A DNA stretch of 64,000 nucleotides from Escherichia coli (GCF_024502345.1 NZ_JALDNN010000001.1); one strand, 5' to 3'; numbered from the stretch's first letter, positions 16,104 to 37,832 are shown. Numbers and translations: made by a program. Notes: generated from the sequence alone by a model not told the origin.

Positions 16104-17603
16104 TTACCTGTGGTCCGGAAGAATAAGTGGCTGCGGTTTCAGACTGTCTGCCGGCACATTTTTCTCTCCGTTAAAAACCATAACGGGTTCATTATCTTCG
16201 TCTGTCAGCGGATTGAATGGCGGTATATTTTCGGTACGAATACCGGTCAGCCACTGAAAAATGCCTGCGAAATTACGGGCACTGATTTTCCTGCTGACGG
16301 ACTGATGAGACGTGATGTCACTGGCGGTAATAATCAGGGGAACGCTGTAGCCCCCCTGCACATGACCATCATGATGAACAGGATTAGCACTGTCGCTGAC
16401 CGACAGCCCATGGTCAGAAAAGTAAAGCATTGCAAAGTGACGGGAATGCCGGCGAAGGATACCATCAAGCTGATCGAGAAAGTTATCCAGTTTACTGATG
16501 CTGGCGAGGTAACAGGCAATCTTTCGGGGATACTGCTCCAGGTAATAATTCGGCCAGGAGTTAAGTCGGTCACACGGATTCGGATGAGAGCCAATCATGT
16601 GCAGGAAAATCACCTTCGGCGAGGATTTATCCGCCAGCGCACGTTCTGTTTCCTGTAACAACAACATGTCATCCGTTTTACGGGAAGCGAAGCTGCCTTT
16701 CTTGAGGAAAACGGTATGCTCCGCATCAGAAGCAATAACAGAGATGCGTGTGTCATGCTCTCCCAGTTTTCCCTGATTGGATATCCACCATGTGCTGTAT
16801 CCTGCTTTTGCTGCCAGCGCCACCACGTTGTTGCCGGAGTCAGGGTTCTGCTCATAGTCATAAATCAGTGTCCGGCTCAGGGAAGGTACGGTACTGGCTG
16901 CTGCCGATGTATAGCCGTCAATAAATAAACCGGGAGCCGTATTCAGCCATGGTGTGGTTGGCACGGGATAGCCATATACCGACATATAATCCCTGCGCAC
17001 ACTCTCACCAGTAACGATAACAATCGTGTCATACAACGGTGTTCCCGGCAGGATTTTCCAGTTGTCAGCCCCGTGCTGACTCAGTTGTTTATAACGCTGC
17101 ATTTCACGCAATGTGTCAGTTGTTCCCACAACAATTCCTTTAACCATCCGCAACGGCCAGCTGTTTACAGAGCATAATACGAACAGCAGCAGTGCCAGCC
17201 AGTTACGGTGACCGCGGTGGTGTGTCCGCCAGAAAATCACCATGAATACCAGAATCGCGGCACTGACCAGAAAATGATAAACAGGAATCATCCCGGTAAA
17301 CTCTGCAGCCTCATCAGCCGTGGTCTGCAGCAACGCGACAATAAAACTGTTGTTGATTTTACCGTACGTCATACCCGCAGGCGCATACAGTGCACAACAG
17401 AACAGAAATAACAGCGTTGTAATGGATGTGAGGGTATTTCTGTGTGCAAGGAGAAGAAGGAGAAACAGAAGCAGCACATTTCCTGTGGCATTCTTCTCAG
17501 TGTATCCGCATGCAATTGTGATTATCACAGAAATAACAAAAAAGAATAAAAACAATAAAATCCGGGGTGTGTCGCCCGGACAAAACAGTTTTCTGATATT
17601 CAT
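16104..17603 (-). CDS. sulfatase-family phosphoethanolamine transferase (EptA/YhbX-like inner membrane protein)
   Basis: N-terminal multi-TM region then sulfatase-like domain with ...IVTGESVRRDYMSVYGY... and ...IFLHMIGSHPNP... motifs. Confidence 0.7.
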   Translation of the reverse strand: MNIRKLFCPGDTPRILLFLFFFVISVIITIACGYTEKNATGNVLLLFLLLLLAHRNTLTSITTLLFLFCCALYAPAGMTYGKINNSFIVALLQTTADEAAEFTGMIPVYHFLVSAAILVFMVIFWRTHHRGHRNWLALLLFVLCSVNSWPLRMVKGIVVGTTDTLREMQRYKQLSQHGADNWKILPGTPLYDTIVIVTGESVRRDYMSVYGYPVPTTPWLNTAPGLFIDGYTSAAASTVPSLSRTLIYDYEQNPDSGNNVVALAAKAGYSTWWISNQGKLGEHDTRISVIASDAEHTVFLKKGSFASRKTDDMLLLQETERALADKSSPKVIFLHMIGSHPNPCDRLNSWPNYYLEQYPRKIACYLASISKLDNFLDQLDGILRRHSRHFAMLYFSDHGLSVSDSANPVHHDGHVQGGYSVPLIITASDITSHQSVSRKISARNFAGIFQWLTGIRTENIPPFNPLTDEDNEPVMVFNGEKNVPADSLKPQPLILPDHR

Positions 17604-25159: not shown

Positions 25160-27655
25160 TTAGTGCTCAGAGTCTTCTGCCAGCGGAGGCTGGAACCGAC
25201 GCAAACGAAGTGCGTTGCCCAGGACAAATACACTGGATAGCGCCATCGCGCCTGCAGCAAAGATTGGTGAAAGCAGCAATCCATAGGCAGGGTACAGCAG
25301 GCCTGCTGCTACAGGGATCAATGCGGCATTATAACCAAACGCCCAAAAAAGATTTTGCCTGATGTTACCTATGGTTGCCTTAGACAATCCAATAGCATTA
25401 GGCACACCCTGTAGGTTGCCGGACATTAAGACAACATCAGCAGATTCCACCGCTATATCGGTACCTGTACCAATTGCAAGCCCAATATCTGCCACGGCTA
25501 AAGCTGGGGCATCATTAATGCCATCACCAACATAAGCGACCTTACCGTAAGACTCCTTCAACCGACGAACTGCTTCAACTTTCCCTTCTGGCAACACTTC
25601 GGCAACCACTTCATCAATACCAAGCTGTCTCGCAATCGCATTTGCTGTATTGGCATTGTCACCGGTAATCATTGCGACTTTGAGCCCCAGTTGGTGCAAT
25701 GCATTTATGGCAATCGGCGTACTTGATTTAATAGGGTCAGCGACTGCGATAATGGCAGCCAGACGTCCATCAATAGCAACATAGAGTGGCGATTTTCCTT
25801 CGTTTCCAAGGCGTATCGCAGTCTTTGAAAAATACTCGATATCCAAGCCTAACTCACGCATAAATCGATCGGCCCCGACCTCTACGCGCTCTCCGTCTAC
25901 GGTAGCCCTGACGCCCATCCCAGTAATTGAATCAAACTCAGTCAACGCTGGCAGCGATATCTCTTTTCCTAGAGCAGCTTCAACGATAGCGCGGGCAATA
26001 GGATGTTCCGAACGTGATTCAACAGCGGCAACTTTTGCTAATACTAAGTCAAGCTCAAACCCTTCGGCCAACTCCAGGTCTGTCATTACTGGGCGCCCTT
26101 CAGTCAAAGTACCTGTTTTGTCTACAGCGACAACCCTGGCATCTTTAAGCAACTGCAGAGCTTCTCCCTTACGGAACAAGATCCCCATTTCTGCACCACG
26201 CCCAGTACCTACCATGATAGAGGTTGGGGTAGCCAATCCCATTGCACATGGGCAGGCAATGATCAATACAGCCACGGCATTAACCAGTGCGAAAGACAGG
26301 GCCGGTGATGGCCCAAATGTTAACCAGGCAAGGAAAGTTAACAACGCTGCCAGCATCACCACAGGAACAAACCATAATGTCACCTTATCGACCACGGCTT
26401 GTATAGGTAGTTTAGAGCCCTGGGCTTGCTCTACCATTCTGATTATTTGTGACAACATCGTCTGGCCACCAACGGCTGTTGCACGCAACCTCAATGCTCC
26501 TTTCTGGTTAACAGTCCCGCCAACCATTAAGCTTCCGGGAACTTTCTCGACGGGGATAGGCTCCCCCGTTATCATCGATTCATCGACAAAACTTGTTCCT
26601 TCACTCACCTCACCATCAACAGGTATCCGCTCACCTGGTCGAACTTCGATAATGTCATCAAGGGCTACATCACTAATGGGAATATCGATGACAATGCCGT
26701 TACGCAGCACATGCGCCTCTTTGGCCTGCAATCCAACCAAACGCTTGATAGCCTCAGACGTTCGACCTTTAGCTCGCGCCTCCATAAATCGTCCTAAAAG
26801 AATAAGAGCGACGATTACCGCAGCAGCTTCGTAATACACATTGACGGTACCTTGAGGCAAAAGACCTGGAGCAAAGGTCGCAATCATTGAATAACCGAAT
26901 GCAGCGAGAGTCCCGACGGAGACGAGAGAGTTCATGTCTGGGCCAAGTCTTAATAACGCGGGAATACCTTTCAGGTAAAAGCGCCGCCCCGGAATAGCCA
27001 ACACCAGCAATGTTAATACAAACTGGAGATACCAGCTTTCCTGGAGCCCAATGGTATCCATTATCCATTGATGCATTCCCGGTATCACATGCGACCCCAT
27101 TTCCAGAATAAATACTGGTAACGCAAGTACGGTCGCCAGAACTAAATCTTTCTTCAACGCAACCTTTTCAGCATCTTTTTTTTCTGCGGCACTATCATTA
27201 TTCTGGCTTTGGTTATCAACCAGGCTGGCTTCATAACCGATTTTTTCGATAGCAGTTATGAGGTCATCAACTCCTGCGGTTCCACGTACAGTAGCTCTTT
27301 CAGTCGCTAAATTAACAGTGGCTTCTTTTACACCTTTAACCGCTCGGAGCGATTTTTCGACACGCCCTACGCATGATGCACATGTCATGCCCTGAACTGA
27401 TAACTCTACAGAAGCTTGAGGAACCTCATAACCAACCTTTTCAACTGCTTCAACCAACGCCATACGATTAACGAATGCATTTAGGCGGATATCTGCACGC
27501 TCTGTTGCAAGGTTAACGCTTACGTTTTGTACGCCTTCAACCTTAGCCAGAGCGGCTTCAACTCGTCCAACGCAGCTTGCACAAGTCATTCCCTCAATGG
27601 GCAAGCTGACTTGAGTTTCACCATCATTAGAATGCTGTTTTTTTTGAATGCTCAT
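25160..27655 (-). CDS. copA: copper(I)-translocating P1B-type ATPase CopA
   Basis: 831 aa; two N-terminal HMA domains with [12 protein letters not shown]; CPC motif ([10 protein letters not shown]); DKTGTLT; [10 protein letters not shown]. Confidence 0.9.
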
Positions 27656-27840: not shown

Positions 27841-28845
<1,005 letters not shown>

Positions 28846-28890
28846 TCAGGCCTCTGGTGATGCACTATCAATTTAGGAGGGAGAATCATA

Positions 28891-29253
28891 ATGTCCAGCA
28901 CATCAGATTGCGGCAACATACAAGACTGTTCCGCGACAGATCATGTCGCGGAGCCAGATCTATCAATGCTCTCGCAAAACGACATTGGGCAACTTTCCGA
29001 GATTTTCCATCTACTGGGGGACCAGTCAAGACTACGAATCCTGCTTTACTGTATGCGTGGTTCGGTCTCTGTAGGCGACATTGCTGAGTCGCTCCAGTTA
29101 TCACAATCTCTGGTCAGTCATCATCTGAGGTTGTTACGAAGTGCAAGGCTTGTTCGCGGAGAGAGAAAGGGTAAGTACATATTTTATAGCATAATGGATC
29201 ACCATGTAAGTCATGTTCTTCAGGACATGGTATTTCACATAGCTGAAGAATAA
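28891..29253 (+). CDS. ArsR/SmtB-family metalloregulatory repressor
   Basis: HTH ...VGDIAESLQLSQSLVSHHLRLLRSARLV...; start codon choice uncertain. Confidence 0.7.
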   Translation: MSSTSDCGNIQDCSATDHVAEPDLSMLSQNDIGQLSEIFHLLGDQSRLRILLYCMRGSVSVGDIAESLQLSQSLVSHHLRLLRSARLVRGERKGKYIFYSIMDHHVSHVLQDMVFHIAEE

Positions 29254-29487
29254 CCCGAATGAATTTTGATAAGTAGAGCTTGTGTAATTCCAACTCACCT
29301 TAGTTTTTCATTACTTTGGTGAGTTGTTTCATCATTAATTTATTAAAACCTTAATAATTAACCTTTTAATAATGAAACCTGCCCCCTTCCCTTGTATGTA
29401 ATAAATACCTGATGGTTCACTATCACCAGATAAAGCGAAGTGAGCAGGCCACCTCATGAAGGAGAAACCTTGCTTTGCAAGCTTATT

Positions 29488-29550
29488 GAATAGCCACGGA
29501 TAATCTAGTTTGTCTGCTTCGTGCCAAAAGCGGACATTGCTACATCACAA
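29488..29550. repeat. solo IS3-family inverted-repeat-like 21-mer followed by a palindromic element (copy 1 of an inverted pair)
   Basis: GAATAGCCACGGATAATCTAG nearly matches the IS end TGAATCGCCACGGATAATCTAG at 33425; then TGTCTGCTTCGTGCCAAAAGCGGACAT...TGCTACATCACAA, inverted relative to the copy at 32483..32519. Confidence 0.5.
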
Positions 29551-29637
29551 TGCGTTATGGTCAACATCAGAATGCAGCCCTTGTGTTGTGACGTGTAGTC
29601 TGGCCTAAACGCAGTTGCACTACATTACCTCGTGGGG

Positions 29638-29886
29638 TCAGCGACGGCCCCGTTTCAGTTCACGTACACAGGGATCATACTCATCTGCATAGCCACCAAA
29701 GTCATGGCTGGGCATGAAGTACCACTTTTCACCTTTCCAACCAGCGATCCGGGTGGTCGGTTTGGTTTTATTCAGAACAACAATACAGACGCCGACGGGA
29801 GACACTGGAGGAAGAAGTCGTTGCACCACACACTCACGATTGCCCACATCAATCCAGTCTTTGACGTGAATTTCAGGATGGTTCAT
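29638..29886 (-). CDS. hypothetical protein (82 aa)
   Basis: ORF only; overlaps a plus-strand ORF (29632..30057); strand choice uncertain. Confidence 0.3.
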   Translation of the reverse strand: MNHPEIHVKDWIDVGNRECVVQRLLPPVSPVGVCIVVLNKTKPTTRIAGWKGEKWYFMPSHDFGGYADEYDPCVRELKRGRR

Positions 29887-30166
29887 TGTTTATCTTCATG
29901 TGATGGAATTGCTTACCGTAATGCATCCGATTACCGTGCAAGATCATGTATCCTGTCGCCTTCCTGCTCCCTTGAGGTGGCGCTGCCTTGGTACAGTCAG
30001 CACTCTGAATGTCAGGCCCAGCCGCGAGGCCGGAAGCTCATCAGGTCGCTGCGGTAGGGGAAAACGGTCCGGGTAACAGACCGTAATCGCCTGCTGGTGG
30101 TTATTGGCCCTGACTGGAGCCGCACTGAAAACTGAAGCGCATTAATATACTCGCGCCTCCGACAGG

Positions 30167-32305
30167 TCAGGCAATTTCTTCCAGCGCATCGTCATTTGCC
30201 GGTGGAGGAGGAAGTATAAGCGCGTCGCACTCCCTGATGACATATTCAGGAATGAGATCAAACCGGGCAGGATCCAGCTGACAGATAAATTCATTTTCAA
30301 TGTGGTAGGTCTCATTCATGAATTTACGTATTACTGCGTTCTCGAGTCCGGTCTGAAGCAACCTGAACACCTGCAGTTTCTCGTAGCCATTACGGCAGAG
30401 CAGATAAAGCGCACGTATACGATCCGGGTCGGTGAGCTGAACGAAAGTGGCCTGGTAGTCAAAGCCGGGAATGCGATCGGCGATTGCCTGGCAGCCGAAG
30501 GCAACTTTTTCTGCGGACATTTCAGGATGTCCCACTCCCTGCACAACGGGTTCACGGGTGTCGATGGGCGTTTCACGGTGATGAAAAAGGTTTGACAGCA
30601 CCTGATAGGCATCACCGAGGTCGTCCATAATTTCATAATGTCGGCGAAGATAGATCAACTTGATGATGTCTTCACTATCAGAGTCAGTGACAGACTGGCA
30701 GATCTGAGCAAAAGTGCGGATATCACTTTCACCGATGAGCTGCTCGGTGATGCAGCCTGCGCTGTAGTGCAAGTGTGAGGCCGTAACCAGATTACTGAAC
30801 AGCTTCCTGACGGACTTCAGTGTATCAATAATAGGCTCAACATCGTGAGTCAGCATCAGTACCGTTTCATTTTTCAGGCACTCACCGGTATTGCGGCGAA
30901 ACAGCATCTCCAGGATGGCAAATTTCTTGTTCTTATCAAACGATGAAATCGGGTCGTCAAGAATGATCAGGCCTGGCTTCTTGGCTAAGCATTCATACAT
31001 AAACAGAACAATGGCAAAGGCGTTGCGTTCACCGTAGCTGAGATGCTGGCTGCCGCCGCTGACGTAGCCTTCAAAGTCTTCGTGGCGCAGTTTCAGCCGA
31101 CATTTATCGCCTTCCCCAGTGATATCCACCTGATAACGATAGCCTGCGTAAGCCAGAAAGGTATTGATATCGGTTTTATGCTTGAGGATCAGCTTCTGCA
31201 TGCCCTGACGCTGCTTATTTATTTGACCCTGCAGGCGTCCGGCCTGCGTCGTCAGGTCGTCTAAAGAGGTATTGAGACTGGCTACGGTGCGGGCCGTTTT
31301 ATCCGACTGCAGCTCCGGGAAAAACTTCACGTCTAGGCGACAGGCTTCCAGTGCAGCCTTGACGTTGGTTGAAGCGCTGAACGTAAAGCCGTTAAGAGTC
31401 TTAAGGGTATTCAGCATATTTATCAGGCTGTCTGTCTGCTTCTTCACTGTCACGAGATATTCTTCGTGCTGTTTTTCCAGCCCACTTTTTAGGGTTGTAA
31501 TATCAGCGAGGCGGGCACGGGCAGGCTCTGAAAAATATTCGCCGAGTTTATCTAGCACGCCGATCAGGCCGATCAGGTTTTTAATGACAGCCTTATCATA
31601 CTCCGCGCTGACGCGGCTAATCTGCTCGGCCTTTTCACGGGAGTCGCCAGTACAGAACGGACAGCAGCCGTCGGATAGCGCGGAGAATTTCTCATACCCC
31701 CGGGTCTGCCACTCGATCCACTCTACGCTGCTTTTACTTTGGATGTACGGCTTATAAGATTCCAAACCGTCGGGAATGTGCTGAAGCTTGTTGCCAGCGG
31801 ATAAGCCTTTCATACCGGTAGACGTTTTTGCAATCCCGGTACTACTCAGCTTAAATGCGGCGCTGAGTTCCCCCAGGTGCGTGATGAATTCTTCAAGCCC
31901 GACGTTATCAGCAAACTGCTGCCGTATGGCCACGACCATGGCTTCGATTTCGCGTTCTGTCTCGTGATACGCTTCACTTTTGATGAAGATGTCAAAACTA
32001 TTACTTACTAACTCGTCTGGTTGAAAAGTGAATTGATCGACATATTTTTCATTAAAGCACATGACGTTTTGCAGGCCATCGACACCAGTTACCCTAGGCT
32101 GTACTGCATCGGGATTAGAACCACGGTATCTAAACGGAAGCAGGTCGCTGAGACCCTGTTCATCCCCGTTTACCGTACACTGAATCGCGCGGGAAATGGT
32201 GCTTTTTCCGGTGCCGTTAGGCGCAAATTTAATATTTAGTTTTTTTTCTGCCAGAGTTATATTTGCTTTATCGATGTTATTACAGCAATTAATTTCAATT
32301 TCCAT
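30167..32305 (-). CDS. ABC-type ATPase with coiled-coil insert and CxxC zinc-hook motif (RloC/Rad50-like); candidate abortive-infection or anticodon-nuclease-type defence protein
   Basis: 712 aa; Walker A FAPNGTGKST near the N-terminus; long helical insert containing DGCCPFCTGD; Walker B LIILDDP; H-loop LTHD; C-terminal domain of about 220 aa with ...YLRRHYEIMDD...FHHRE.... Confidence 0.6.
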   Translation of the reverse strand: MEIEINCCNNIDKANITLAEKKLNIKFAPNGTGKSTISRAIQCTVNGDEQGLSDLLPFRYRGSNPDAVQPRVTGVDGLQNVMCFNEKYVDQFTFQPDELVSNSFDIFIKSEAYHETEREIEAMVVAIRQQFADNVGLEEFITHLGELSAAFKLSSTGIAKTSTGMKGLSAGNKLQHIPDGLESYKPYIQSKSSVEWIEWQTRGYEKFSALSDGCCPFCTGDSREKAEQISRVSAEYDKAVIKNLIGLIGVLDKLGEYFSEPARARLADITTLKSGLEKQHEEYLVTVKKQTDSLINMLNTLKTLNGFTFSASTNVKAALEACRLDVKFFPELQSDKTARTVASLNTSLDDLTTQAGRLQGQINKQRQGMQKLILKHKTDINTFLAYAGYRYQVDITGEGDKCRLKLRHEDFEGYVSGGSQHLSYGERNAFAIVLFMYECLAKKPGLIILDDPISSFDKNKKFAILEMLFRRNTGECLKNETVLMLTHDVEPIIDTLKSVRKLFSNLVTASHLHYSAGCITEQLIGESDIRTFAQICQSVTDSDSEDIIKLIYLRRHYEIMDDLGDAYQVLSNLFHHRETPIDTREPVVQGVGHPEMSAEKVAFGCQAIADRIPGFDYQATFVQLTDPDRIRALYLLCRNGYEKLQVFRLLQTGLENAVIRKFMNETYHIENEFICQLDPARFDLIPEYVIRECDALILPPPPANDDALEEIA

Positions 32306-32482
32306 ACCTAATCCTTTACGGCAAAGACACTGAGCAGGCCCCGTATATTGCAGGCCCGATTAATTATTTAAGCTGAAGCCAGAACATATAAGCACCGTTT
32401 CATTTTTGAGTAAAGCACTCCGGGATTCGCCCTTGGTACCGCAGCGCCGGAGCAGTTGTTTTATAGAGCGTATGTACGGCGC

Positions 32483-32519
32483 TTGTGATGTATGTCCGCT
32501 TCGTGCCAAGAGCGGACAT
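32483..32519. repeat. palindromic element (copy 2 of the inverted pair)
   Basis: TTGTGATGTA TGTCCGCTTCGTGCCAAGAGCGGACAT; inverted repeat partner of 29511..29550. Confidence 0.5.
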
Positions 32520-32588
32520 TTGCACCCTCAGTACCCGCACCAGACTAAGCCGGCTCAGCAATGTCGGCGTTGCTGATACTGACAGACG

Positions 32589-33424
32589 TTATGCCGTTTT
32601 AAAGCGACGTTTCCGGTGTATCACCATGAGAGCGACAATTACCGCCACCGCAATTGTCGCGGTCCCCCGGAAGACGACTGATGAATCTCCTAGGATGATT
32701 TCCATGAATGATGATAAAAACTGGCCGGAGAATATAGCCATAGAAAGCCAGGCAAGGTTACGTCCCCGGACGCGAGCGTGACTCTGCTCGACTGTCATAT
32801 GATTCACAAGCGGCACCGACAGACCAAACCCACAACTCATTAAAACCCCGCCAGCGATGTAGAACACTACATTATCAGCGAATGAAAATATGAAATGTCC
32901 GGCAGCGTAGCAGCTAAACGCCGTGTACAGATTTCCGTACTCACGTAAACGCGCTATGAGGCGCGGCATCATCGCAGCAGCCCCGACGGCGACCAGTGAG
33001 ATAAACGACAGAAAGTATCCGGTTTCTGCTGCCCCAATAGCCATGCAGCTAAACACCTGCGGAATGATGATAATGCTGGTGAAGAAGCAAATCATGGACA
33101 GCAGGGCTGCAAAAAGCACAGGCGCTAATCGAGTCGCACTCACCGATTCGCTTTCTCCGGCGTTTTCATTCATGTTTTCTGTCCCAGAGGACAATTGTTA
33201 CGGCACAAACGCCAGCTGCATAACCAGAAGAACCTAGGCAAAAAGATGAAGCAAAAACGGCCACTGCCAGCCAAGGGTTGCAAGTAATCCGCCTATAAAC
33301 AGAAAAATGACACCGCCCAGCTCAATCAACATTCCCTGCGAAGGTATCATTTTCAGGCAAGCCTGACCGCTATGAAACGAGGAAATCAATCCGGTTCCTG
33401 CTGACATGACGATGGCGGTATCTG
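32589..33424 (-). pseudogene. MFS-type transporter gene remnant, frameshifted and cut by the IS3-family element
   Basis: ORF 32589..33194 is hydrophobic with about 6 TM helices; more TM-like coding sequence continues upstream in another frame to the IS boundary at 33425. Confidence 0.45.
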
Positions 33425-33442
33425 TGAATCGCCACGGATAAT

Positions 33443-33909
33443 CTAGACACTTCCGAGCCGTTGATAATACTGGTTTTCATATTCTGTCGGTGACATCTGA
33501 TCGCTAGAACCATGCCGACGCCTACTGTTATAAAACATTTCGATGTAATCAAAAATATCGCTGCGGGCTTCTTCCCGCGTTCCGTAGATCTTTTTCTTTA
33601 TCCGCTCGCGTTTCAGTAACTGGAAAAAGCTTTCTGCAACCGCGTTATCGTGGCAGTTACCACGACGGCTCATGCTGCCCTCCAGTCCGTGTGATTTCAG
33701 GAACGACTGCCACTCATGGCTTGTGTACTGACTGCCCTGATCCGAGTGAACCAGCACCTGTTTTTGGGGGTTACGCCGCCATACAGCCATCAGCAGTGCG
33801 TTCAGGACAATGTCCTTTGTCATCCGGGATTGCATTGACCAGCCGATAATTTTACGTGAGAACAGATCAACAACCACGGCAAGATACAGCCAGCCTTCGT
33901 GAGTCCTGA
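33443..33909 (-). pseudogene. IS3-family transposase OrfB, 3' exon-like segment downstream of the intron
   Basis: ...IRTHEGWLYLAVVVDLFSRKIIGWSMQSRM...HSDQGSQYTS...GNCHDNAVAESFF... (DDE domain). Confidence 0.8.
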
Positions 33910-36179
33910 GTAGAGTAAGAGGCAGGGCGTAGTCGGACTATTTCCCTGCCTCTCCTCCCCGAACCGGACGTGCACCTTTCAGCGCATCCGGCTCTCCATT
34001 TAAATGCTGGCGAACGCCATTGCCACTTCTGTAAAGCGCGATGTATACGTGTTTCTGGTCTCCGTCCTCAGATAGGGATTACCTTCGGGTAGCCGCCAGC
34101 GGAACAGCTTCTTGCCTTGCCCCACCAACCGGTACAGTATTTCGCCGCTGAGCTTGCCGTGATTGGTTTTACCAAATAAAACCCACGTTTTGCTCTGACC
34201 CGGTTTCGGTGATTTACACCACCACCTCATCAGGGAAGCGATACCTGTACGGTATTTGCGGGCCAGCCAGTGAGCCAGCTTCCAGAACACGACACGGTCG
34301 ATATAACTGAAGACTTTGGCCTTAAAATCAACGAACTGATAGAACATAGCCCAGCCTTTCAGTTTTCGGTTGAGTTGTTCAGCCATATCGACTTTGCTTT
34401 CACTGTAGTTGCCTGATAACAGTGCTGTCAGCGATGCGGCGAAGTTTCTGGCTTTCTCCTGCGGGATCGTTGAGACCACTCGCATCTCGCCATAACGACT
34501 GCGTTTGCGAATGATCCTGTGCCCCAGAAAGATAAAGCCGTCATTAACATGGGTGATTTTAGTCTTATCCATGTTCAGCCTGAGTTTCAGACTGCCTTCG
34601 AGCACACCCCGACACTCCTCCCTGATGGCTTCCGCCTGTGCTTTGGTGCCTTTGACGATGAGGACAAAATCATCGGCATAGCGGCAGTACGCCACCGCGG
34701 GTTTCCACTGCCAGTTTTCTCTGACCGCCGTACTTCGGCCCCGTTGGATACTGTTATTCCAGTACCACCGATCTTTTCTGGCTTTCCCGCTCAGGTAGCG
34801 CTCATGCAGGTATTGATCGAACTCATTCAGCATGATGTTCGATAATAGCGGCGATATAACACCGCCCTGTGGCACACCTTCACTGGCCGCCCGAAAGAGA
34901 CCGACATCGATATGTCCCGCCTTGATGGTTTTCCACAGCAGAGTCATGAAACGTGCGTCACTGATCCTGCGGCGTACAGCCTTCATCAGCAGTCGATGAT
35001 GTACGGTGTCGAAGTAACTGGACAGGTCGCCTTCAATCACCCAGCGTCCCCGGGTTTCACCACAGTCTGTGAGCTGTAATTTCACCGTGCGGATCGCGTG
35101 GTGGACACTGCGCTCAGGCCGGAAGCCATATGAGAGCGTATGAAAATCACTCTCCCATATCGGCTCCATCGCCATCAGCATGGCCCGCTGAACAATACGA
35201 TCCCGCAACGCGGGGATACCCAGTGGTCGCAGTTTGCCGTTGCTTTTAGGGATGTAAACCCGTCTGGCGGGCAAGGGCTGGTAGTGGCCTGAGAGTAATT
35301 CATCCCTGAGGATTTGCAGCTCAACAGCCAGTCTGGCCTGTAGCATTGTTTTGTTCACGCCATCAACGCCGGGGGTATGGGCCCCCTTTGATGAAAGCGT
35401 GATCCGCGCCGCTTCAGCCAGCCATTCTGGTTGTGTTATCAGACGCAGCAGCCGTTGAATCCGTAGGGACGGATCGGTGGCTGCCCATGTGGCAAGCTTG
35501 CGTTGCATTTCGCTGATTATCAAAGGTCTTCACCTCGTTAGGTCAGTTAATTCACGTCGCAAACACATTCAAACTGCTTCCCTTCGCCATGTAATGGGCT
35601 TTCCCCATCGCGGACTACTACGGAAGCTCCGCCAGCCAGCGCGTCATCGGAGCCATGCCCCCTTAACATCCGTCGCTGACCTTCCCCGGTTTACCTGCCT
35701 GGACTCAGGCATACTGAGGAGGCTGCCCGTCGCACTCTTTATCCTTGCTTGCCGCAAGTTGGCAGAAGTCAGCAACGCAAGCGTGATAGACGCTGCTGCC
35801 CCGGTGTTTCGCATACATGTCAAAACACCTTCGACCGGCAGTGCTTACGTATCACTGCCAGTTCCTCCTGCACGGCCTGTCAGATCACGTAGGCCGTGGT
35901 GACGTTTTCAACCCACAGAGGCGGATTAACGGGTTCATGTTCTTCAGCCTTTCAGTACTTAACCTTGAGGATCATCTCGGCTTAGTGATCTCGCCTCAAT
36001 CCCCGTTGTCAGCGGGTTACATCACCCTGCGGGCATGCCGCAGGTCACTGCCGCTCAGGTTCTCCACCGTCACACCCGGTGGGATTGTTGGGTTTCTCAT
36101 CGTGAGTTACCGGTTCAATATTCCAGACAGACTCGCGGTTCATTTAAGCATCCATGCCCGCCCTGAACTCCGGGCACAC
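33910..36179 (-). mobile_element. bacterial group II intron (about 2.27 kb) inserted in IS3-family orfB
   Basis: 5' end GUGUG immediately after exon codon ...DITY; 3' end ...CUAC (AY); domain V GAGCCGGATGCGCTGAAAGGTGCACGTCCGGTTC about 50 nt from the 3' end; internal RT/maturase ORF; joining the flanks restores in-frame ...DITYIRTHEGWLYLAV.... Confidence 0.85.
34000..35523 (-). CDS. group II intron-encoded reverse transcriptase/maturase
   Basis: 507 aa; RT motifs including ...YCRYADDFVLIV... (YADD box) and a C-terminal maturase region; no HNH endonuclease Cys cluster seen. Confidence 0.9.
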   Translation of the reverse strand: MIISEMQRKLATWAATDPSLRIQRLLRLITQPEWLAEAARITLSSKGAHTPGVDGVNKTMLQARLAVELQILRDELLSGHYQPLPARRVYIPKSNGKLRPLGIPALRDRIVQRAMLMAMEPIWESDFHTLSYGFRPERSVHHAIRTVKLQLTDCGETRGRWVIEGDLSSYFDTVHHRLLMKAVRRRISDARFMTLLWKTIKAGHIDVGLFRAASEGVPQGGVISPLLSNIMLNEFDQYLHERYLSGKARKDRWYWNNSIQRGRSTAVRENWQWKPAVAYCRYADDFVLIVKGTKAQAEAIREECRGVLEGSLKLRLNMDKTKITHVNDGFIFLGHRIIRKRSRYGEMRVVSTIPQEKARNFAASLTALLSGNYSESKVDMAEQLNRKLKGWAMFYQFVDFKAKVFSYIDRVVFWKLAHWLARKYRTGIASLMRWWCKSPKPGQSKTWVLFGKTNHGKLSGEILYRLVGQGKKLFRWRLPEGNPYLRTETRNTYTSRFTEVAMAFASI

Positions 36180-36525
36180 TGTAGGTTATGTCCGTTACCC
36201 AACGCTCATCCGGAGCATCCGGATTGAACTGTCGCTGGAGCCTGTTGGGCGACACAATACTGGCCTCGCCTTTACGTGCCCGCGGGCTCCGGTATCCGAC
36301 CTGAGCCTTTATCCCGACACGTTTCATCAGTCGCCAGACTCTGTTGACTCCGCACTGTTGCCCGCTATCCCGCAGATCCAGATGGATCTTGCGATAACCA
36401 TAGACACATCCCGATTCCAGCCAGAACTGTTTAATCTGTCCTGTCAGTCTCAGGTCTACCTGATGGCGTTGTGAATGCGGCTGCTGAAGCCAGGAGTAAA
36501 AGCCACTGGGATGAACATCCAGCAC
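36180..36525 (-). pseudogene. IS3-family transposase OrfB, 5' exon-like segment upstream of the intron
   Basis: ...RQFNPDAPDERWVTDITY then the reading frame runs into the intron. Confidence 0.8.
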
Positions 36526-36611
36526 CCTACAAAGCAGGCGAACAGGCCAGAAACAGGTGTTGTCGCGGATAAAGGCGTACCTCAGTCGGACAGTTTTGCG
36601 AAGTACGCCGC

Positions 36612-37832
36612 TGTAGATTCAATTGGTCAACGCAACAGTTATGTGAAAACATGGGGTTGCGGAGGTTTTTTGAATGAGACGAACATTTACAGCAGAGGAA
36701 AAAGCCTCTGTTTTTGAACTATGGAAGAACGGAACAGGCTTCAGTGAAATAGCGAATATCCTGGGTTCAAAACCCGGAACGATCTTCACTATGTTAAGGG
36801 ATACTGGCGGCATAAAACCCCATGAGCGTAAGCGGGCTGTAGCTCACCTGACACTGTCTGAGCGCGAGGAGATACGAGCTGGTTTGTCAGCCAAAATGAG
36901 CATTCGTGCGATAGCTACTGCGCTGAATCGCAGTCCTTCGACGATCTCACGTGAAGTTCAGCGTAATCGGGGCAGACGCTATTACAAAGCTGTTGATGCT
37001 AATAACCGAGCCAACAGAATGGCGAAAAGGCCAAAACCGTGCTTACTGGATCAAAATTTACCATTGCGAAAGCTTGTTCTGGAAAAGCTGGAGATGAAAT
37101 GGTCTCCAGAGCAAATATCAGGATGGTTAAGGCGAACAAAACCACGTCAAAAAACGCTGCGAATATCACCTGAGACAATTTATAAAACGCTGTACTTTCG
37201 TAGCCGTGAAGCGCTACACCACCTGAATATACAGCATCTGCGACGGTCGCATAGCCTTCGCCATGGCAGGCGTCATACCCGCAAAGGCGAAAGAGGTACG
37301 ATTAACATAGTGAACGGAACACCAATTCACGAACGTTCCCGAAATATCGATAACAGACGCTCTCTGGGGCATTGGGAGGGCGATTTAGTCTCAGGTACAA
37401 AAAACTCTCATATAGCCACACTTGTAGACCGAAAATCACGTTATACGATCATCCTTAGACTCAGGGGCAAAGATTCTGTCTCAGTAAATCAGGCTCTTAC
37501 CGACAAATTCCTGAGTTTACCGTCAGAACTCAGAAAATCACTGACATGGGACAGAGGAATGGAACTGGCCAGACATCTAGAATTTACTGTCAGCACCGGC
37601 GTTAAAGTTTACTTCTGCGATCCTCAGAGTCCTTGGCAGCGGGGAACAAATGAGAACACAAATGGGCTAATTCGGCAGTACTTTCCTAAAAAGACATGTC
37701 TTGCCCAATATACTCAACATGAACTAGATCTGGTTGCTGCTCAGCTAAACAACAGACCGAGAAAGACACTGAAGTTCAAAACACCGAAAGAGATAATTGA
37801 AAGGGGTGTTGCATTGACAGATTGAATCTACA
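36612..37832 (+). mobile_element. IS30, complete (1221 bp)
   Basis: Terminal inverted repeats TGTAGATTCAATTGGTCAACGCAACAG at 36612 and its reverse complement ending at 37832; one 383-aa transposase ORF. Confidence 0.9.
36674..37825 (+). CDS. IS30 transposase
   Basis: 383 aa, MRRTFTAEEKASVFELWKNGTGFSEIANILGSKPGTIF..., recognised as the E. coli IS30 transposase. Confidence 0.95.
   Translation: MRRTFTAEEKASVFELWKNGTGFSEIANILGSKPGTIFTMLRDTGGIKPHERKRAVAHLTLSEREEIRAGLSAKMSIRAIATALNRSPSTISREVQRNRGRRYYKAVDANNRANRMAKRPKPCLLDQNLPLRKLVLEKLEMKWSPEQISGWLRRTKPRQKTLRISPETIYKTLYFRSREALHHLNIQHLRRSHSLRHGRRHTRKGERGTINIVNGTPIHERSRNIDNRRSLGHWEGDLVSGTKNSHIATLVDRKSRYTIILRLRGKDSVSVNQALTDKFLSLPSELRKSLTWDRGMELARHLEFTVSTGVKVYFCDPQSPWQRGTNENTNGLIRQYFPKKTCLAQYTQHELDLVAAQLNNRPRKTLKFKTPKEIIERGVALTD

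Follow-up and report, generated by a model that had tools for sequence, protein, structure and literature searches.

The window analysed here, the whole stretch of 64,000 nucleotides from Escherichia coli (GCF_024502345.1 NZ_JALDNN010000001.1), contains a 3-kb segment in which an ATPase gene and an 82-aa ORF lie between two copies of a palindromic motif. The question this locus raises is what the palindromes are, and whether they are the ends of something that moves. A reading made from the sequence alone took them for an inverted pair and offered three options: a mobilised cassette, a miniature transposable element pair, or a recombination site. The first and third fit the comparisons presented below; the second does not, given that the copies are direct by their asymmetric centre and that the 22-mer beside the first copy comes from an unrelated and very common IS. 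The features concerned are presented in Table 1.

Table 1. Features of the locus, in window coordinates.
Feature	Position	Strand	Description
Solo 22-nt terminal repeat, IS3-family IS	29487..29508	+	One mismatch to 33425-33446
B site copy 1	29510..29537	+	TTGTCTGCT-TCGTGCCAAA-AGCGGACAT; GTGCCA at 29521-29526; left junction of the cassette
Cassette, delimited by comparison	29521..32502	.	B1 centre (GTGCCA) to B2 left arm
82-aa ORF	29638..29886	-	Translation; no family match
712-aa AAA_13/ABC-type ATPase, candidate single-gene anti-phage system PDC-S06	30167..32305	-	PADLOC PDLC04889
TTGTGATGTA, inverted complement of TACATCACAA	32483..32492	+	Where 215 bp are deleted compared with the E. coli copy
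B site copy 2	32492..32519	+	ATGTCCGCT-TCGTGCCAAG-AGCGGACAT; GTGCCA at 32503-32508; right junction of the cassette
IS3-family IS end	33425..33446	+	IS inserted in the MFS gene of the neighbouring module and split by a group II intron

That the motif is present twice was borne out: its 26-nt form occurs at exactly two places in the 64-kb window, with 0.00 expected from shuffles, at 29511-29536 with two mismatches and at 32493-32518 with none. Each belongs to a 28-bp site, here called B, in which 9-bp inverted arms (ATGTCCGCT / AGCGGACAT) enclose a 10-nt asymmetric centre, TCGTGCCAAR, whose GTGCCA is invariant; GTGCCAA is read at both 29521-29527 and 32503-32509. As DNA, each copy folds into a 9-bp stem with a loop of 8-10 nt (-6.2 kcal/mol and z -2.1 for copy 1, -9.1 kcal/mol and z -4.2 for copy 2). 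No further full or half site was found in the window.

The orientation is not the one first proposed. The asymmetric centre, TCGTGCCAAA in one copy and TCGTGCCAAG in the other, runs in the same direction in both, and the repeat search, with which the alignments agree, gave 90% identity over 31 nt in the direct register versus 70% in the inverted one. The inverted repeats of about 37 bp likewise reduce to a 10-mer, TACATCACAA at 29541-29550 and its inverted complement at the other end. Where the window has a deletion, the E. coli copy of the module reads CTTGTGATG, then 215 bp, then TATGTCCGC, and the deleted stretch took out the remnant of a serine-recombinase gene. Given that the right-hand 8-mer TTGTGATG lies 215 bp from the palindrome in the E. 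coli copy, the adjacency of the 10-mer to copy 2 is a product of the deletion and not the terminus of an element.

The near-copy of an IS3-family terminal repeat directly left of the first palindrome is present as described: the 22-mer TGAATAGCCACGGATAATCTAG matches the IS end at 33425-33446 in all but one base, with 0.00 such matches expected by chance. The two represent one and the same IS end, oriented alike, and no copy of the opposite (reverse) end was found in the window. The empty site of the insertion in the MFS gene was found in pNUITM-VR1_1, and the intron within the IS (Rfam RF00029, 33910-33996, minus strand) was the only match in an Rfam search of 28500-37000 at E<=1, in which the palindromes had none. 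PLSDB has this IS in 2061 plasmids, and its solo ends are found elsewhere as well. The left flank of B1 is confined to this plasmid family; the 22-nt end is a remnant of an unrelated IS3-family insertion beside the site, outside the cassette system.

These observations bear on the possibility that a transposon, with inverted terminal repeats or as a pair of MITEs and possibly related to IS3, mobilised the 3-kb segment. It would account for the 10-bp inverted flank and the adjoining IS end. However, the palindromes are direct and the inverted 10-mer became adjacent through deletion, no target-site duplication was found around the segment (29509/32520), both IS ends in the window are the same end with no reverse partner, and most records of the common IS3-family element show no relation to the sites. 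We regard this explanation as effectively refuted.

The same 3-kb module, consisting of the 82-aa ORF and the ATPase gene, is present in 83 E. coli chromosomes with 98.3% identity over 29521-32490, and in the K. pneumoniae IncFIB plasmid pKpn13-1 with 94.3% identity. In E. coli chromosomes of the ST648 type, homology to the window begins at 29521, in the GTGCCA centre. The megablast match to the K. pneumoniae IncFIB plasmid starts earlier, at 29511, because the left arm there (TGTCTGCTGT) is similar; by eye, the left arms differ and the sequence is common from GTGCCA onward. The left arm of B1 is thus different in each of the three contexts (TGTCTGCTTC, CTTCCGCAAT and TGTCTGCTGT). At the right end, the left arm of B2 (ATGTATGTCCGCTTC) is common to the window and the E. 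coli copy, which diverge beyond the centre. At least three replicon contexts that are unrelated to one another therefore contain the segment, and in them homology stops at the palindrome centre, which supports its being a mobilised cassette. No recombination product was observed for this cassette, neither a circle nor an empty B junction, and the evidence is comparative throughout.

In terms of cargo, the ATPase matches PADLOC PDLC04889 (PDC-S06) over its full length (residues 1-698 of 712, E 1.3e-297) and carries the Pfam domain AAA_13 (PF13166). The 82-aa ORF, for which no family was found in PADLOC, NCBIfam or PHROG, accompanies the ATPase in both E. coli and K. pneumoniae, and is also found without it elsewhere.

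Searching other genomes for the palindrome, as the sequence-only reading had proposed, showed that the same sites separate differing gene modules, and that in many genomes the palindrome forms the junctions of cassette arrays, which supports the view of it as a recombination site. The motif was found in 180 plasmids, in about 1046 of 5426 E. coli genomes (about 19%) and in many other taxa. E. coli has 1-3 site places per genome, and the enteric copies all lie inside mobile elements. The same 24-mer, including the non-pairing GTGCCA, occurs in Alpha-, Beta- and Gammaproteobacteria; sites extend to Hyphomicrobiales and Nitrosomonadales, with high copy numbers in Hyphomicrobiales and Nitrosospira MAGs only.

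B has a partner site, A, which has the same arms around another centre (YCGCTCA in enterics) and usually lies 14-22 nt upstream of B. Arrays of A and B sites, all in one orientation, part gene modules in islands at ychF, in Rac/Qin-like prophages and on plasmids. In E. coli ST648, the module under study is the third cassette of an array beside a P4-type integrase at ychF, with six B sites on the same strand (6/6), three of them preceded by A. Strain RM14723 has the integrase-B junction found in ST648, followed by different cassettes and again by B, A.B and A. In Rac/Qin-like prophages, the flanks outside the interval from B to A are conserved and the cargo varies, with breakpoints inside the sites; one strain has a near-empty interval, B-225 bp-A. 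The Rac prophage of E. coli K-12 (trkG region), in which no A or B site was found, is consequently unusable as an anchor. On the parent plasmid of the window, the next module (the MFS gene and two ORFs) terminates at an A-like site (locus L003, 15337), and an additional B site lies at 17147 of the same locus.

These patterns were quantified in a survey of 120 loci, one genome per species, which were gathered via the site itself and are therefore subject to ascertainment. In 67 of 143 cases B has another palindrome 30-75 nt upstream of it, and in 3 of 143 one downstream; where B sites neighbour each other, 21 of 23 pairs share a strand (p = 7e-5), and positions flanking the 24-mer are conserved. 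Of 136 endpoints of homology between unrelated loci, 27 lie no more than 20 nt from a site centre, against 1.4% expected, an enrichment of about 15 times, although module boundaries are intergenic anyway and some coincidence would be expected with any intergenic repeat. Examples include the Providencia loci L136 and L139, the Rahnella loci L109 and L131, and a Salmonella plasmid (L005) compared with Citrobacter (L072). In enterics, AAC or AAT often stands before A and GTT or ATT after B, and the breakpoints are at the GTGCCA or CGCTCA centres.

The sequence-only reading had foreseen that the palindrome might turn out to be a common repeat unrelated to cargo boundaries. It is indeed common and always intergenic, yet strongly tied to such boundaries. 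The corresponding explanation, that the sites are REP-like dispersed palindromes, selfish or structural and possibly multiplied by a transposase, which mark cargo boundaries only through their position between genes and serve passively as hot spots for exchange by short homology or stimulated by hairpins, with no dedicated machinery, is in our view unlikely, though it is the most serious of the alternatives. It would fit their wide intergenic distribution, the absence of a recombinase near most loci, and the fact that an identical stretch of 24-28 nt comes close to the shortest that RecA-dependent exchange can use. It also fits the Hyphomicrobiales, where each MAG has dozens of sites as two or three tandem hairpins beside fabF, dinB-like and fatty-acid genes; in Hyphomicrobium MAGs, the very numerous sites, with triple palindromes flanking housekeeping-type genes such as fabF and dinB, are closer in appearance to a dispersed repeat of the REP type than to an array of cassettes. 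Against it, REPs are lineage-specific and number tens to hundreds per chromosome, whereas here the sequence is kept across Alpha-, Beta- and Gammaproteobacteria, the unpaired GTGCCA included, and enteric genomes have 1-3 copies, all in mobile elements. The strict polarity of the arrays whatever the gene direction, the breakpoints at the centre, and the linkage of a recombinase gene to a half site, presented below, argue in the same direction.

A further explanation is that the palindromes are transcription-level signals, such as terminator or insulator hairpins or the operators of a regulator, which merely accompany the genes. The hairpins are stable, and B lies about 28 nt past the vapC stop codon in four loci. 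However, there is no T-run and no Rfam family, the sites take either orientation relative to the adjacent gene but one orientation along an array, and the conservation of both the unpaired centre and the arms across phyla beside unrelated genes is unlike the operator of one regulator. We give this explanation very little credence.

The explanation we consider probable is that the two direct 28-bp sites are core-type sites for a tyrosine recombinase and bound one cassette of a site-specific system that is integron-like but distinct from integrons. The cassette at 29521-32502 would then be one unit of a short cassette array on a megaplasmid. A recombinase would bind the arms and exchange strands within the GTGCCA centre, such that two direct B sites would release the module as a circle with one hybrid B, which could re-enter any other B on a plasmid, prophage or island. 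A, whose centre is different, presumably cannot cross with B; such heterospecific sites would explain the polarity of the arrays and the swapping of segments flanked by B and A.

As for the enzyme, all-against-all clustering of the ORFs from 135 loci yielded no recurrent family of large recombinases or of transposase-like proteins. Two candidates were set aside: the P4-type integrase (Arm-DNA-bind_3) next to the ST648 array is of the ordinary kind found in islands, and the serine recombinase directly beside B in Pantoea and E. coli occurs in only 4-5 loci, for which reason it is taken as cargo. The likely enzyme is instead a tyrosine recombinase of about 200 aa that consists of the catalytic domain only. 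In 7 of 7 examined contexts of its close members, the gene is followed by half a B site, GTGCCA-NN-AGCRGA, 20-50 nt past the stop codon. The downstream element of these members is a hairpin fused to GTGCCA-NN-AGCGGAC, that is, the centre and right arm of B with a foreign left arm, and it may serve as a primary site in the manner of attI or sfx. Copies from an E. coli prophage and from Hyphomicrobiaceae, 57% identical, each adjoin a site. Near more distant members there are related palindromes, among them a co-varying arm (ATGTTCGCT/AGCGAACAT), with only degenerate sites, and in homologues on alphaproteobacterial plasmids the downstream half-site is weak, degenerate or absent.

The family, of which WP_023147793 from E. 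coli is one member, is large, with more than 7900 clusters and 77-95% identity across genera. A PDB sequence search gave weak XerD matches only (E 0.004), and the single integron-labelled NCBIfam match is to the XerA/integron model NF040815, at 54.6 bits against a cutoff of 220; a 309-aa recombinase encoded in the ST648 island likewise stays below the cutoff of integrase_gron (60 against 265). The small recombinase has no homologue encoded in the window, hence it would act in trans here, and most site-bearing loci have none nearby either. Strains with arrays as well as the recombinase do exist, for example E. coli A2 and K71-77. Given that the Pantoea version of the module has a serine recombinase gene directly beside B, the assignment to the small recombinase is not exclusive.

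More tentatively, we raise the possibility that the window holds one cassette of an undescribed system parallel to integrons, with a recombinase of about 200 aa, palindromic double-strand sites and two heterospecific centres (GTGCCA in B, a lineage-specific one in A), which excises, inserts and swaps multi-gene cassettes among Enterobacterales plasmids, lambdoid prophages and islands with P4 integrases, and reaches Alpha- and Betaproteobacteria. The cassettes of that system would carry defence, toxin-antitoxin, metal and metabolic functions. Full-text literature searches did not find the palindrome or its Hyphomicrobium variants, and keyword searches on integron-like, tyrosine-recombinase and cassette systems gave no matching description.

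Were this so, there would be a second integron-like route by which ready-made modules spread among the plasmids, prophages and chromosomal islands of clinically important Enterobacterales. Its cargo would be a candidate anti-phage ATPase here, and toxin-antitoxin, transporter, regulator and metal-resistance genes elsewhere. It would also explain the sharply bounded, interchangeable accessory and defence units at hot spots, such as the positions that adjoin island integrases or follow the replication genes in Rac/Qin-like prophages, and would provide a search signature for them, ATGTCCGCT-N2-GTGCCA-N2-AGCGGACAT. With a recombinase of 200 aa, a site of 28 bp and heterospecific centres that occur naturally, the system could also serve as a compact tool for genome engineering. 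Even as a REP-like recombination hot spot, the motif would be a useful marker of module boundaries.

Four known systems invite comparison. With integrons, the sites share arrays of promiscuous gene cassettes in one orientation, parted by structured palindromic sites; a composite site made of two simple sites with inverted arms; a recombinase gene followed by a hybrid primary site; and defence, toxin-antitoxin and resistance cargo in arrays on plasmids, phages and chromosomes. This raises the question of whether they are unusual attC sites (as in CALINs), recombined by an integron integrase on folded single strands. A and B with the variable spacer between them, the AAC/AAT and GTT/ATT boundaries seen in enterics and the single orientation of the arrays are in keeping with this, and in the ensemble the outer arms of adjacent palindromes are able to pair (centroid, L065). 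However, since each half is a perfect self-hairpin, the minimum-energy fold gives A and B, and in Hyphomicrobium also C, a hairpin each (two or three in all) instead of a single imperfect one that has extrahelical bases and, on the bottom strand, an unpaired central spacer. Many junctions consist of B alone or A alone, the presumed crossovers map to the centre of B or A and not to a terminal G/TT, and the integrases adjacent to arrays are P4-type or the 200-aa enzyme. Cassettes reach 5 kb with several genes in both directions, and sites abound in Hyphomicrobiales; to our knowledge, integrons are reported absent from Alphaproteobacteria. We therefore consider an attC identity very improbable. 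Integrons differ from the system proposed here in having IntI, in place of which the candidate enzyme has 200 aa and the catalytic domain only, and the sites here are short perfect palindromes with a conserved centre of double-strand type, presumed crossover at the site centre, and two classes, A and B, told apart by that centre. The cassettes are also larger, multi-gene and bidirectional, and the sites are present in Alphaproteobacteria.

REP/REPIN elements, which are associated with RAYT transposases, are likewise short intergenic hairpin repeats, at times doublets or triplets, and resemble the sites in their high copy number in Hyphomicrobium. They differ in that the sites here have sequence conservation across classes, a conserved loop, a low enteric copy number confined to mobile elements, and an association with a tyrosine recombinase, not an HUH enzyme. 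The pdif (Xer) modules of Acinetobacter plasmids are similarly bounded by 28-bp core sites with an 11-6-11-like layout, in many plasmid contexts and with no linked recombinase gene. However, their flanking sites are inverted and those here direct, a dedicated small recombinase is linked here, and the arms ATGTCCGCT/AGCGGACAT are unlike the XerC/XerD consensus of dif and cer, GGTGCGCATAA/TTATGTTAAAT.

The R64 shufflon is also based on a tyrosine recombinase, Rci, of about 384 aa. No rci-like gene was found near the sites in the window, and no IncI plasmid appears among the 40 matches listed of 1352 (tblastn, E<1e-8). The sfx site used by Rci has the crossover core GTGCCAA (PMC4176322), identical to the 7-bp core here and set in the same arm-core-arm layout. 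Its core and right arm are conserved and its left arm is not (PMC11852207), as in the half-site that follows the small recombinase gene. Symmetric sfx sites are reported to allow excision, and Rci, a larger enzyme, carries an additional C-terminal domain (PMC11852207). The systems differ in that the 12-bp right arm of sfx, TCCGGTACGTGG, is unrelated to the right arm here, (G/A)AGCGGACAT, and that sfx sites are inverted within pilV, beside rci, and produce inversions within one gene, whereas the sites described here are direct, have symmetric arms and enclose whole genes.

The palindrome-containing motif occurs exactly twice in the window (29511-29536 and 32493-32518), with 0.00 copies expected from shuffled sequences, and both palindromes fold as a 9-bp stem with a loop of 8-10 nt. 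The loops are asymmetric (TCGTGCCAAA / TCGTGCCAAG) and keep one reading direction in both copies, hence the copies are direct repeats, matching at 90% over 31 nt in this arrangement vs. 70% as an inverted pair. The sequence-only reading had described inverted copies of the motif: two copies are indeed present, but the only truly inverted piece is a 10-mer (TACATCACAA at 29541-29550 vs. TTGTGATGTA at 32483-32492). The full palindromes, 28-bp sites with the centre GTGCCA, are referred to as B sites (B1 and B2).

Features of the cassette locus and of the adjoining insertion sequence
Feature	Coordinates	Strand	Remarks
Solo IS3-family 22-mer end	29487-29508		Remnant, 2 nt from B1
B1 palindrome	29510-29537
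82-aa ORF	29638-29886	minus
712-aa AAA_13 ATPase	30167-32305	minus	PADLOC candidate defence family PDC-S06, full length, E = 1.3e-297
B2 palindrome	32492-32519
Group II intron, domain V/VI match	33910-33996	minus	Intron splits the IS
Group II intron, reverse-transcriptase ORF	34000-35523	minus

The window comes from a large conjugative Klebsiella/Raoultella-type megaplasmid, and positions 29300-32700 are 100% identical to pNUITM-VR1_1, p17277A_477 and about 15 others. The module between the two sites is also held by 83 E. coli chromosomes at 98.3% identity, the match spanning 29521 to 32490, and by a K. pneumoniae IncFIB plasmid at 94.3% identity. By these comparisons, the 3-kb segment has moved as a unit. 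At the left end, the sequence from GTGCCA onward is common to the three contexts, and the left palindrome arms are unlike (TGTCTGCTTC, CTTCCGCAAT, TGTCTGCTGT). On the right, the window and E. coli have the left arm of the second palindrome, ATGTATGTCCGCTTC, in common and diverge past its centre. The E. coli copy carries 215 bp extra between TTGTGATG and the second palindrome. These 215 bp are what is left, at the C-terminal end, of the gene for a 198-aa serine recombinase (annotated as an 'HTH' ORF, L001 11043-11171); Pantoea has this gene intact in its own version of the module, with the stop codon 18 nt ahead of B (L154 6640-7236). The corresponding deletion in the window (joint 32490/32491) shows ATG microhomology and brought the inverted flank beside the second palindrome, so the apparent inverted repeats of about 37 bp noted earlier are a product of that deletion. 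The cassette thus comprises 29521-32502, its edges lying at the centres of two direct sites.

The 82-aa ORF is found without the ATPase in other Klebsiella and Citrobacter plasmids (L153 5010-5258), and the Pantoea ATPase homologue has an Abi-family gene as partner instead (L154 3131-4135); hence the two are not an obligate pair. Elsewhere in the window, an (ACGAAC)n tandem hexamer (28772-28798) encodes a His-Glu repeat at the C-terminus of a cation-diffusion-facilitator transporter (27841-28845), whose gene cluster includes a P-type ATPase gene (25160-27655). A collinear plasmid record annotates a second P-type ATPase and MerR/CueR and ArsR regulators upstream.

The possibility that the segment is a transposon or MITE, raised earlier as a transposable-element pair, fails, given that repeat orientation, target duplication and IS-end polarity are all contrary to it. 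The solo IS end itself was correctly recognized: its 22-mer recurs at 33425-33446 (0.00 expected from shuffles) and belongs to an IS3-family element present in 2061 PLSDB plasmids. Since the two 22-mers represent one and the same IS end and point the same way, no composite transposon lies between them. The copy at 33425 (33425-36700) interrupts the MFS transporter gene of the neighbouring module, and the empty site is seen in pNUITM-VR1_1; the far end of this IS copy is missing, beside an IS30-type transposase gene (36674-37825). The left flank of the solo end is found in this plasmid family only.

The sites recur in arrays. In E. coli ST648, the module sits in an island adjoining ychF, in which a P4-type integrase is followed by six B copies on one strand, each separating gene modules; three of the six are preceded by an A site, a palindrome with the same arms and the centre YCGCTCA. 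Further cassettes of this island carry defence-like genes, including a TmtA/MkoA-like helicase and a PDC-M68A-like nuclease. Strain RM14723 shares this integrase-B junction but has other cassettes, and its sites again run B, A.B, A. In Rac/Qin-like prophages at rspB, B follows a DUF977 replication-region gene and A precedes hokD; the outer flanks are kept, the cargo varies, and the breakpoints lie inside the sites. The cargo consists of BCCT transporter, DUF2254 and LysR genes in one strain and of hypothetical proteins and a 200-aa integrase in another, and strain A20 has a near-empty B-225 bp-A interval. In the megaplasmid, the neighbouring module (the MFS gene and two ORFs) closes at an A-like site, with a further B beyond.

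Elements of the IS3 family are met repeatedly at or next to B. The A20 interval contains about 75 nt left over from the window's IS (L135 1820-1896), and ISEc24 interrupts the left arm of the B nearest the integrase in ST131 and in about 540 further E. coli genomes (L159 12350-12370; L160 12360). IS3-family elements may preferentially target the palindrome. In addition, four plasmid or chromosome contexts (L005 3545-4027, L006 241-711, L048 and L112), belonging to Salmonella, Cronobacter, Phytobacter and Escherichia sp., have vapBC directly upstream of B, with about 28 nt between the vapC stop codon and the site; this looks like a recurrent toxin-antitoxin cassette.

In an all-against-all comparison of non-redundant loci, 27 of 136 homology endpoints fell within 20 nt of a site centre, vs. 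1.4% expected from site density. Two Providencia islands with different integrases and attachment loci share a 6.5-kb segment between B sites (L136/L139), and all four ends of a Rahnella cassette fall on sites. Modules are common to a Salmonella plasmid and Citrobacter, to Kosakonia and Escherichia, and to Erwinia and Serratia, and the cargo near sites is very diverse. Sites coincide with module boundaries in general.

B is always intergenic. It is present in 180 PLSDB plasmids (Klebsiella, Pantoea, Enterobacter, Citrobacter, Cronobacter, Salmonella and others). Of 5426 complete E. coli genomes, about 1046 have it, each at one to three places. The matches listed in a cross-taxon scan, for which each species was represented by one genome, include many Enterobacterales, Hyphomicrobiales, Nitrosomonadales, Alteromonadales-type and other genomes. 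Among these listed matches (143 instances), flanking bases lengthen the arms to ATGTCCGCT / AGCGGACAT(T), 67 instances have a second palindrome 30-75 nt upstream of B and 3 have one downstream, and 21 of 23 neighbouring B pairs are on one strand (p = 7e-5). The scan pattern itself fixed the centre GTGCCA; plasmid, prophage and island loci collected by BLAST show independently that it is conserved across genera. At A sites the centre differs between lineages (TCGCTCA in enterics, TTACCCCCGAA in Hyphomicrobium), and in Hyphomicrobium a third palindrome is located about 91 nt upstream of B.

Hyphomicrobium MAGs (L065, L069, L071, L085) contain a repeat unit of about 115 nt with three same-armed palindromes (loops TTGGGTCAAA, TTACCCCCGAA and AAGTGCCAAA), in dozens of copies beside housekeeping-type genes such as fabF and dinB, a copy-number behaviour very unlike that of enterics.

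The main alternative is that the palindrome is a REP-like repeat at which recombination is passively concentrated, as the high copy number and housekeeping neighbours in Hyphomicrobium and the lack of a nearby enzyme at most loci would suggest. Such a repeat fits poorly, however, with an unpaired centre conserved across classes, with low copy number and restriction to mobile elements in enterics, with the strict polarity of sites, and with a recombinase gene linked to a half-site. A terminator or operator fails on orientation and on the missing T-run, and canonical attC/IntI sites fail since fold, crossover position and integrase type are all unlike. We consider it fairly probable that the palindromes are cassette-junction recombination sites.

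No recurrent large recombinase was found near sites among the compared loci. A candidate enzyme is a 200-aa tyrosine recombinase (PF00589 only) encoded in an E. coli prophage cassette. In all seven contexts examined of its close members, a hairpin AGGGCTG-n5-CAGCCCT lies 20-50 nt past the stop codon, fused to GTGCCA-NN-AGCGGAC, i.e., the B centre and right arm, the left arm being foreign; an A-like left half is often upstream of the gene. Related palindromes adjoin the genes of distant members, including co-varying arms ATGTTCGCT/AGCGAACAT, a Hyphomicrobiaceae genome encodes, about 90 nt from B, a homologue 57% identical to the E. coli prophage enzyme, and alphaproteobacterial plasmid homologues show weak site remnants only. 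The family is broad (>7900 clusters at E<1e-20; 526 50%-identity clusters at E<1e-30), and members are 77-95% identical across Escherichia, Providencia, Proteus, Pantoea, Idiomarina and Cycloclasticus, which fits a highly mobile gene. That this recombinase acts on the sites is, in our judgement, an evenly balanced proposition. No homologue is encoded in the window, so the enzyme would have to act here in trans. Upstream of these genes, a conserved inverted repeat AAATCTC...GAGATTT overlaps the ribosome-binding region (L009 18183-18221; L136 7963-8000) and could be an autoregulatory or translational control element.

In the core sites of tyrosine recombinases, an asymmetric centre is typically enclosed by inverted arms of about 9-11 bp. 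The sfx site of the R64 shufflon has exactly the B centre, GTGCCAA, as its crossover core (PMC4176322); conservation in sfx is limited to the core and right arm and symmetric versions reportedly permit excision besides inversion (PMC11852207). From this layout and identity a recombination mechanism is proposed, all of its steps being drawn from comparison. The GTGCCA centre would be the place of strand exchange, and a direct B pair would yield a circle with the cassette and one hybrid B, which could insert into any B, the half-site that follows the recombinase gene among them. Because their arms are common and their centres are not, A and B would be heterospecific, which would set array polarity and permit double-crossover swaps of B...A-flanked cargo, as in the prophages.

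No Rfam family was found for the palindromes and no curated NCBIfam name for the recombinase past 'site-specific integrase', and no paper with these sequences or such a system was found in the openly accessible literature. Integrons and pdif modules are likewise cassette systems based on site-specific recombination, yet the system proposed here differs from both in the enzyme class member, the site anatomy and the two-centre logic.
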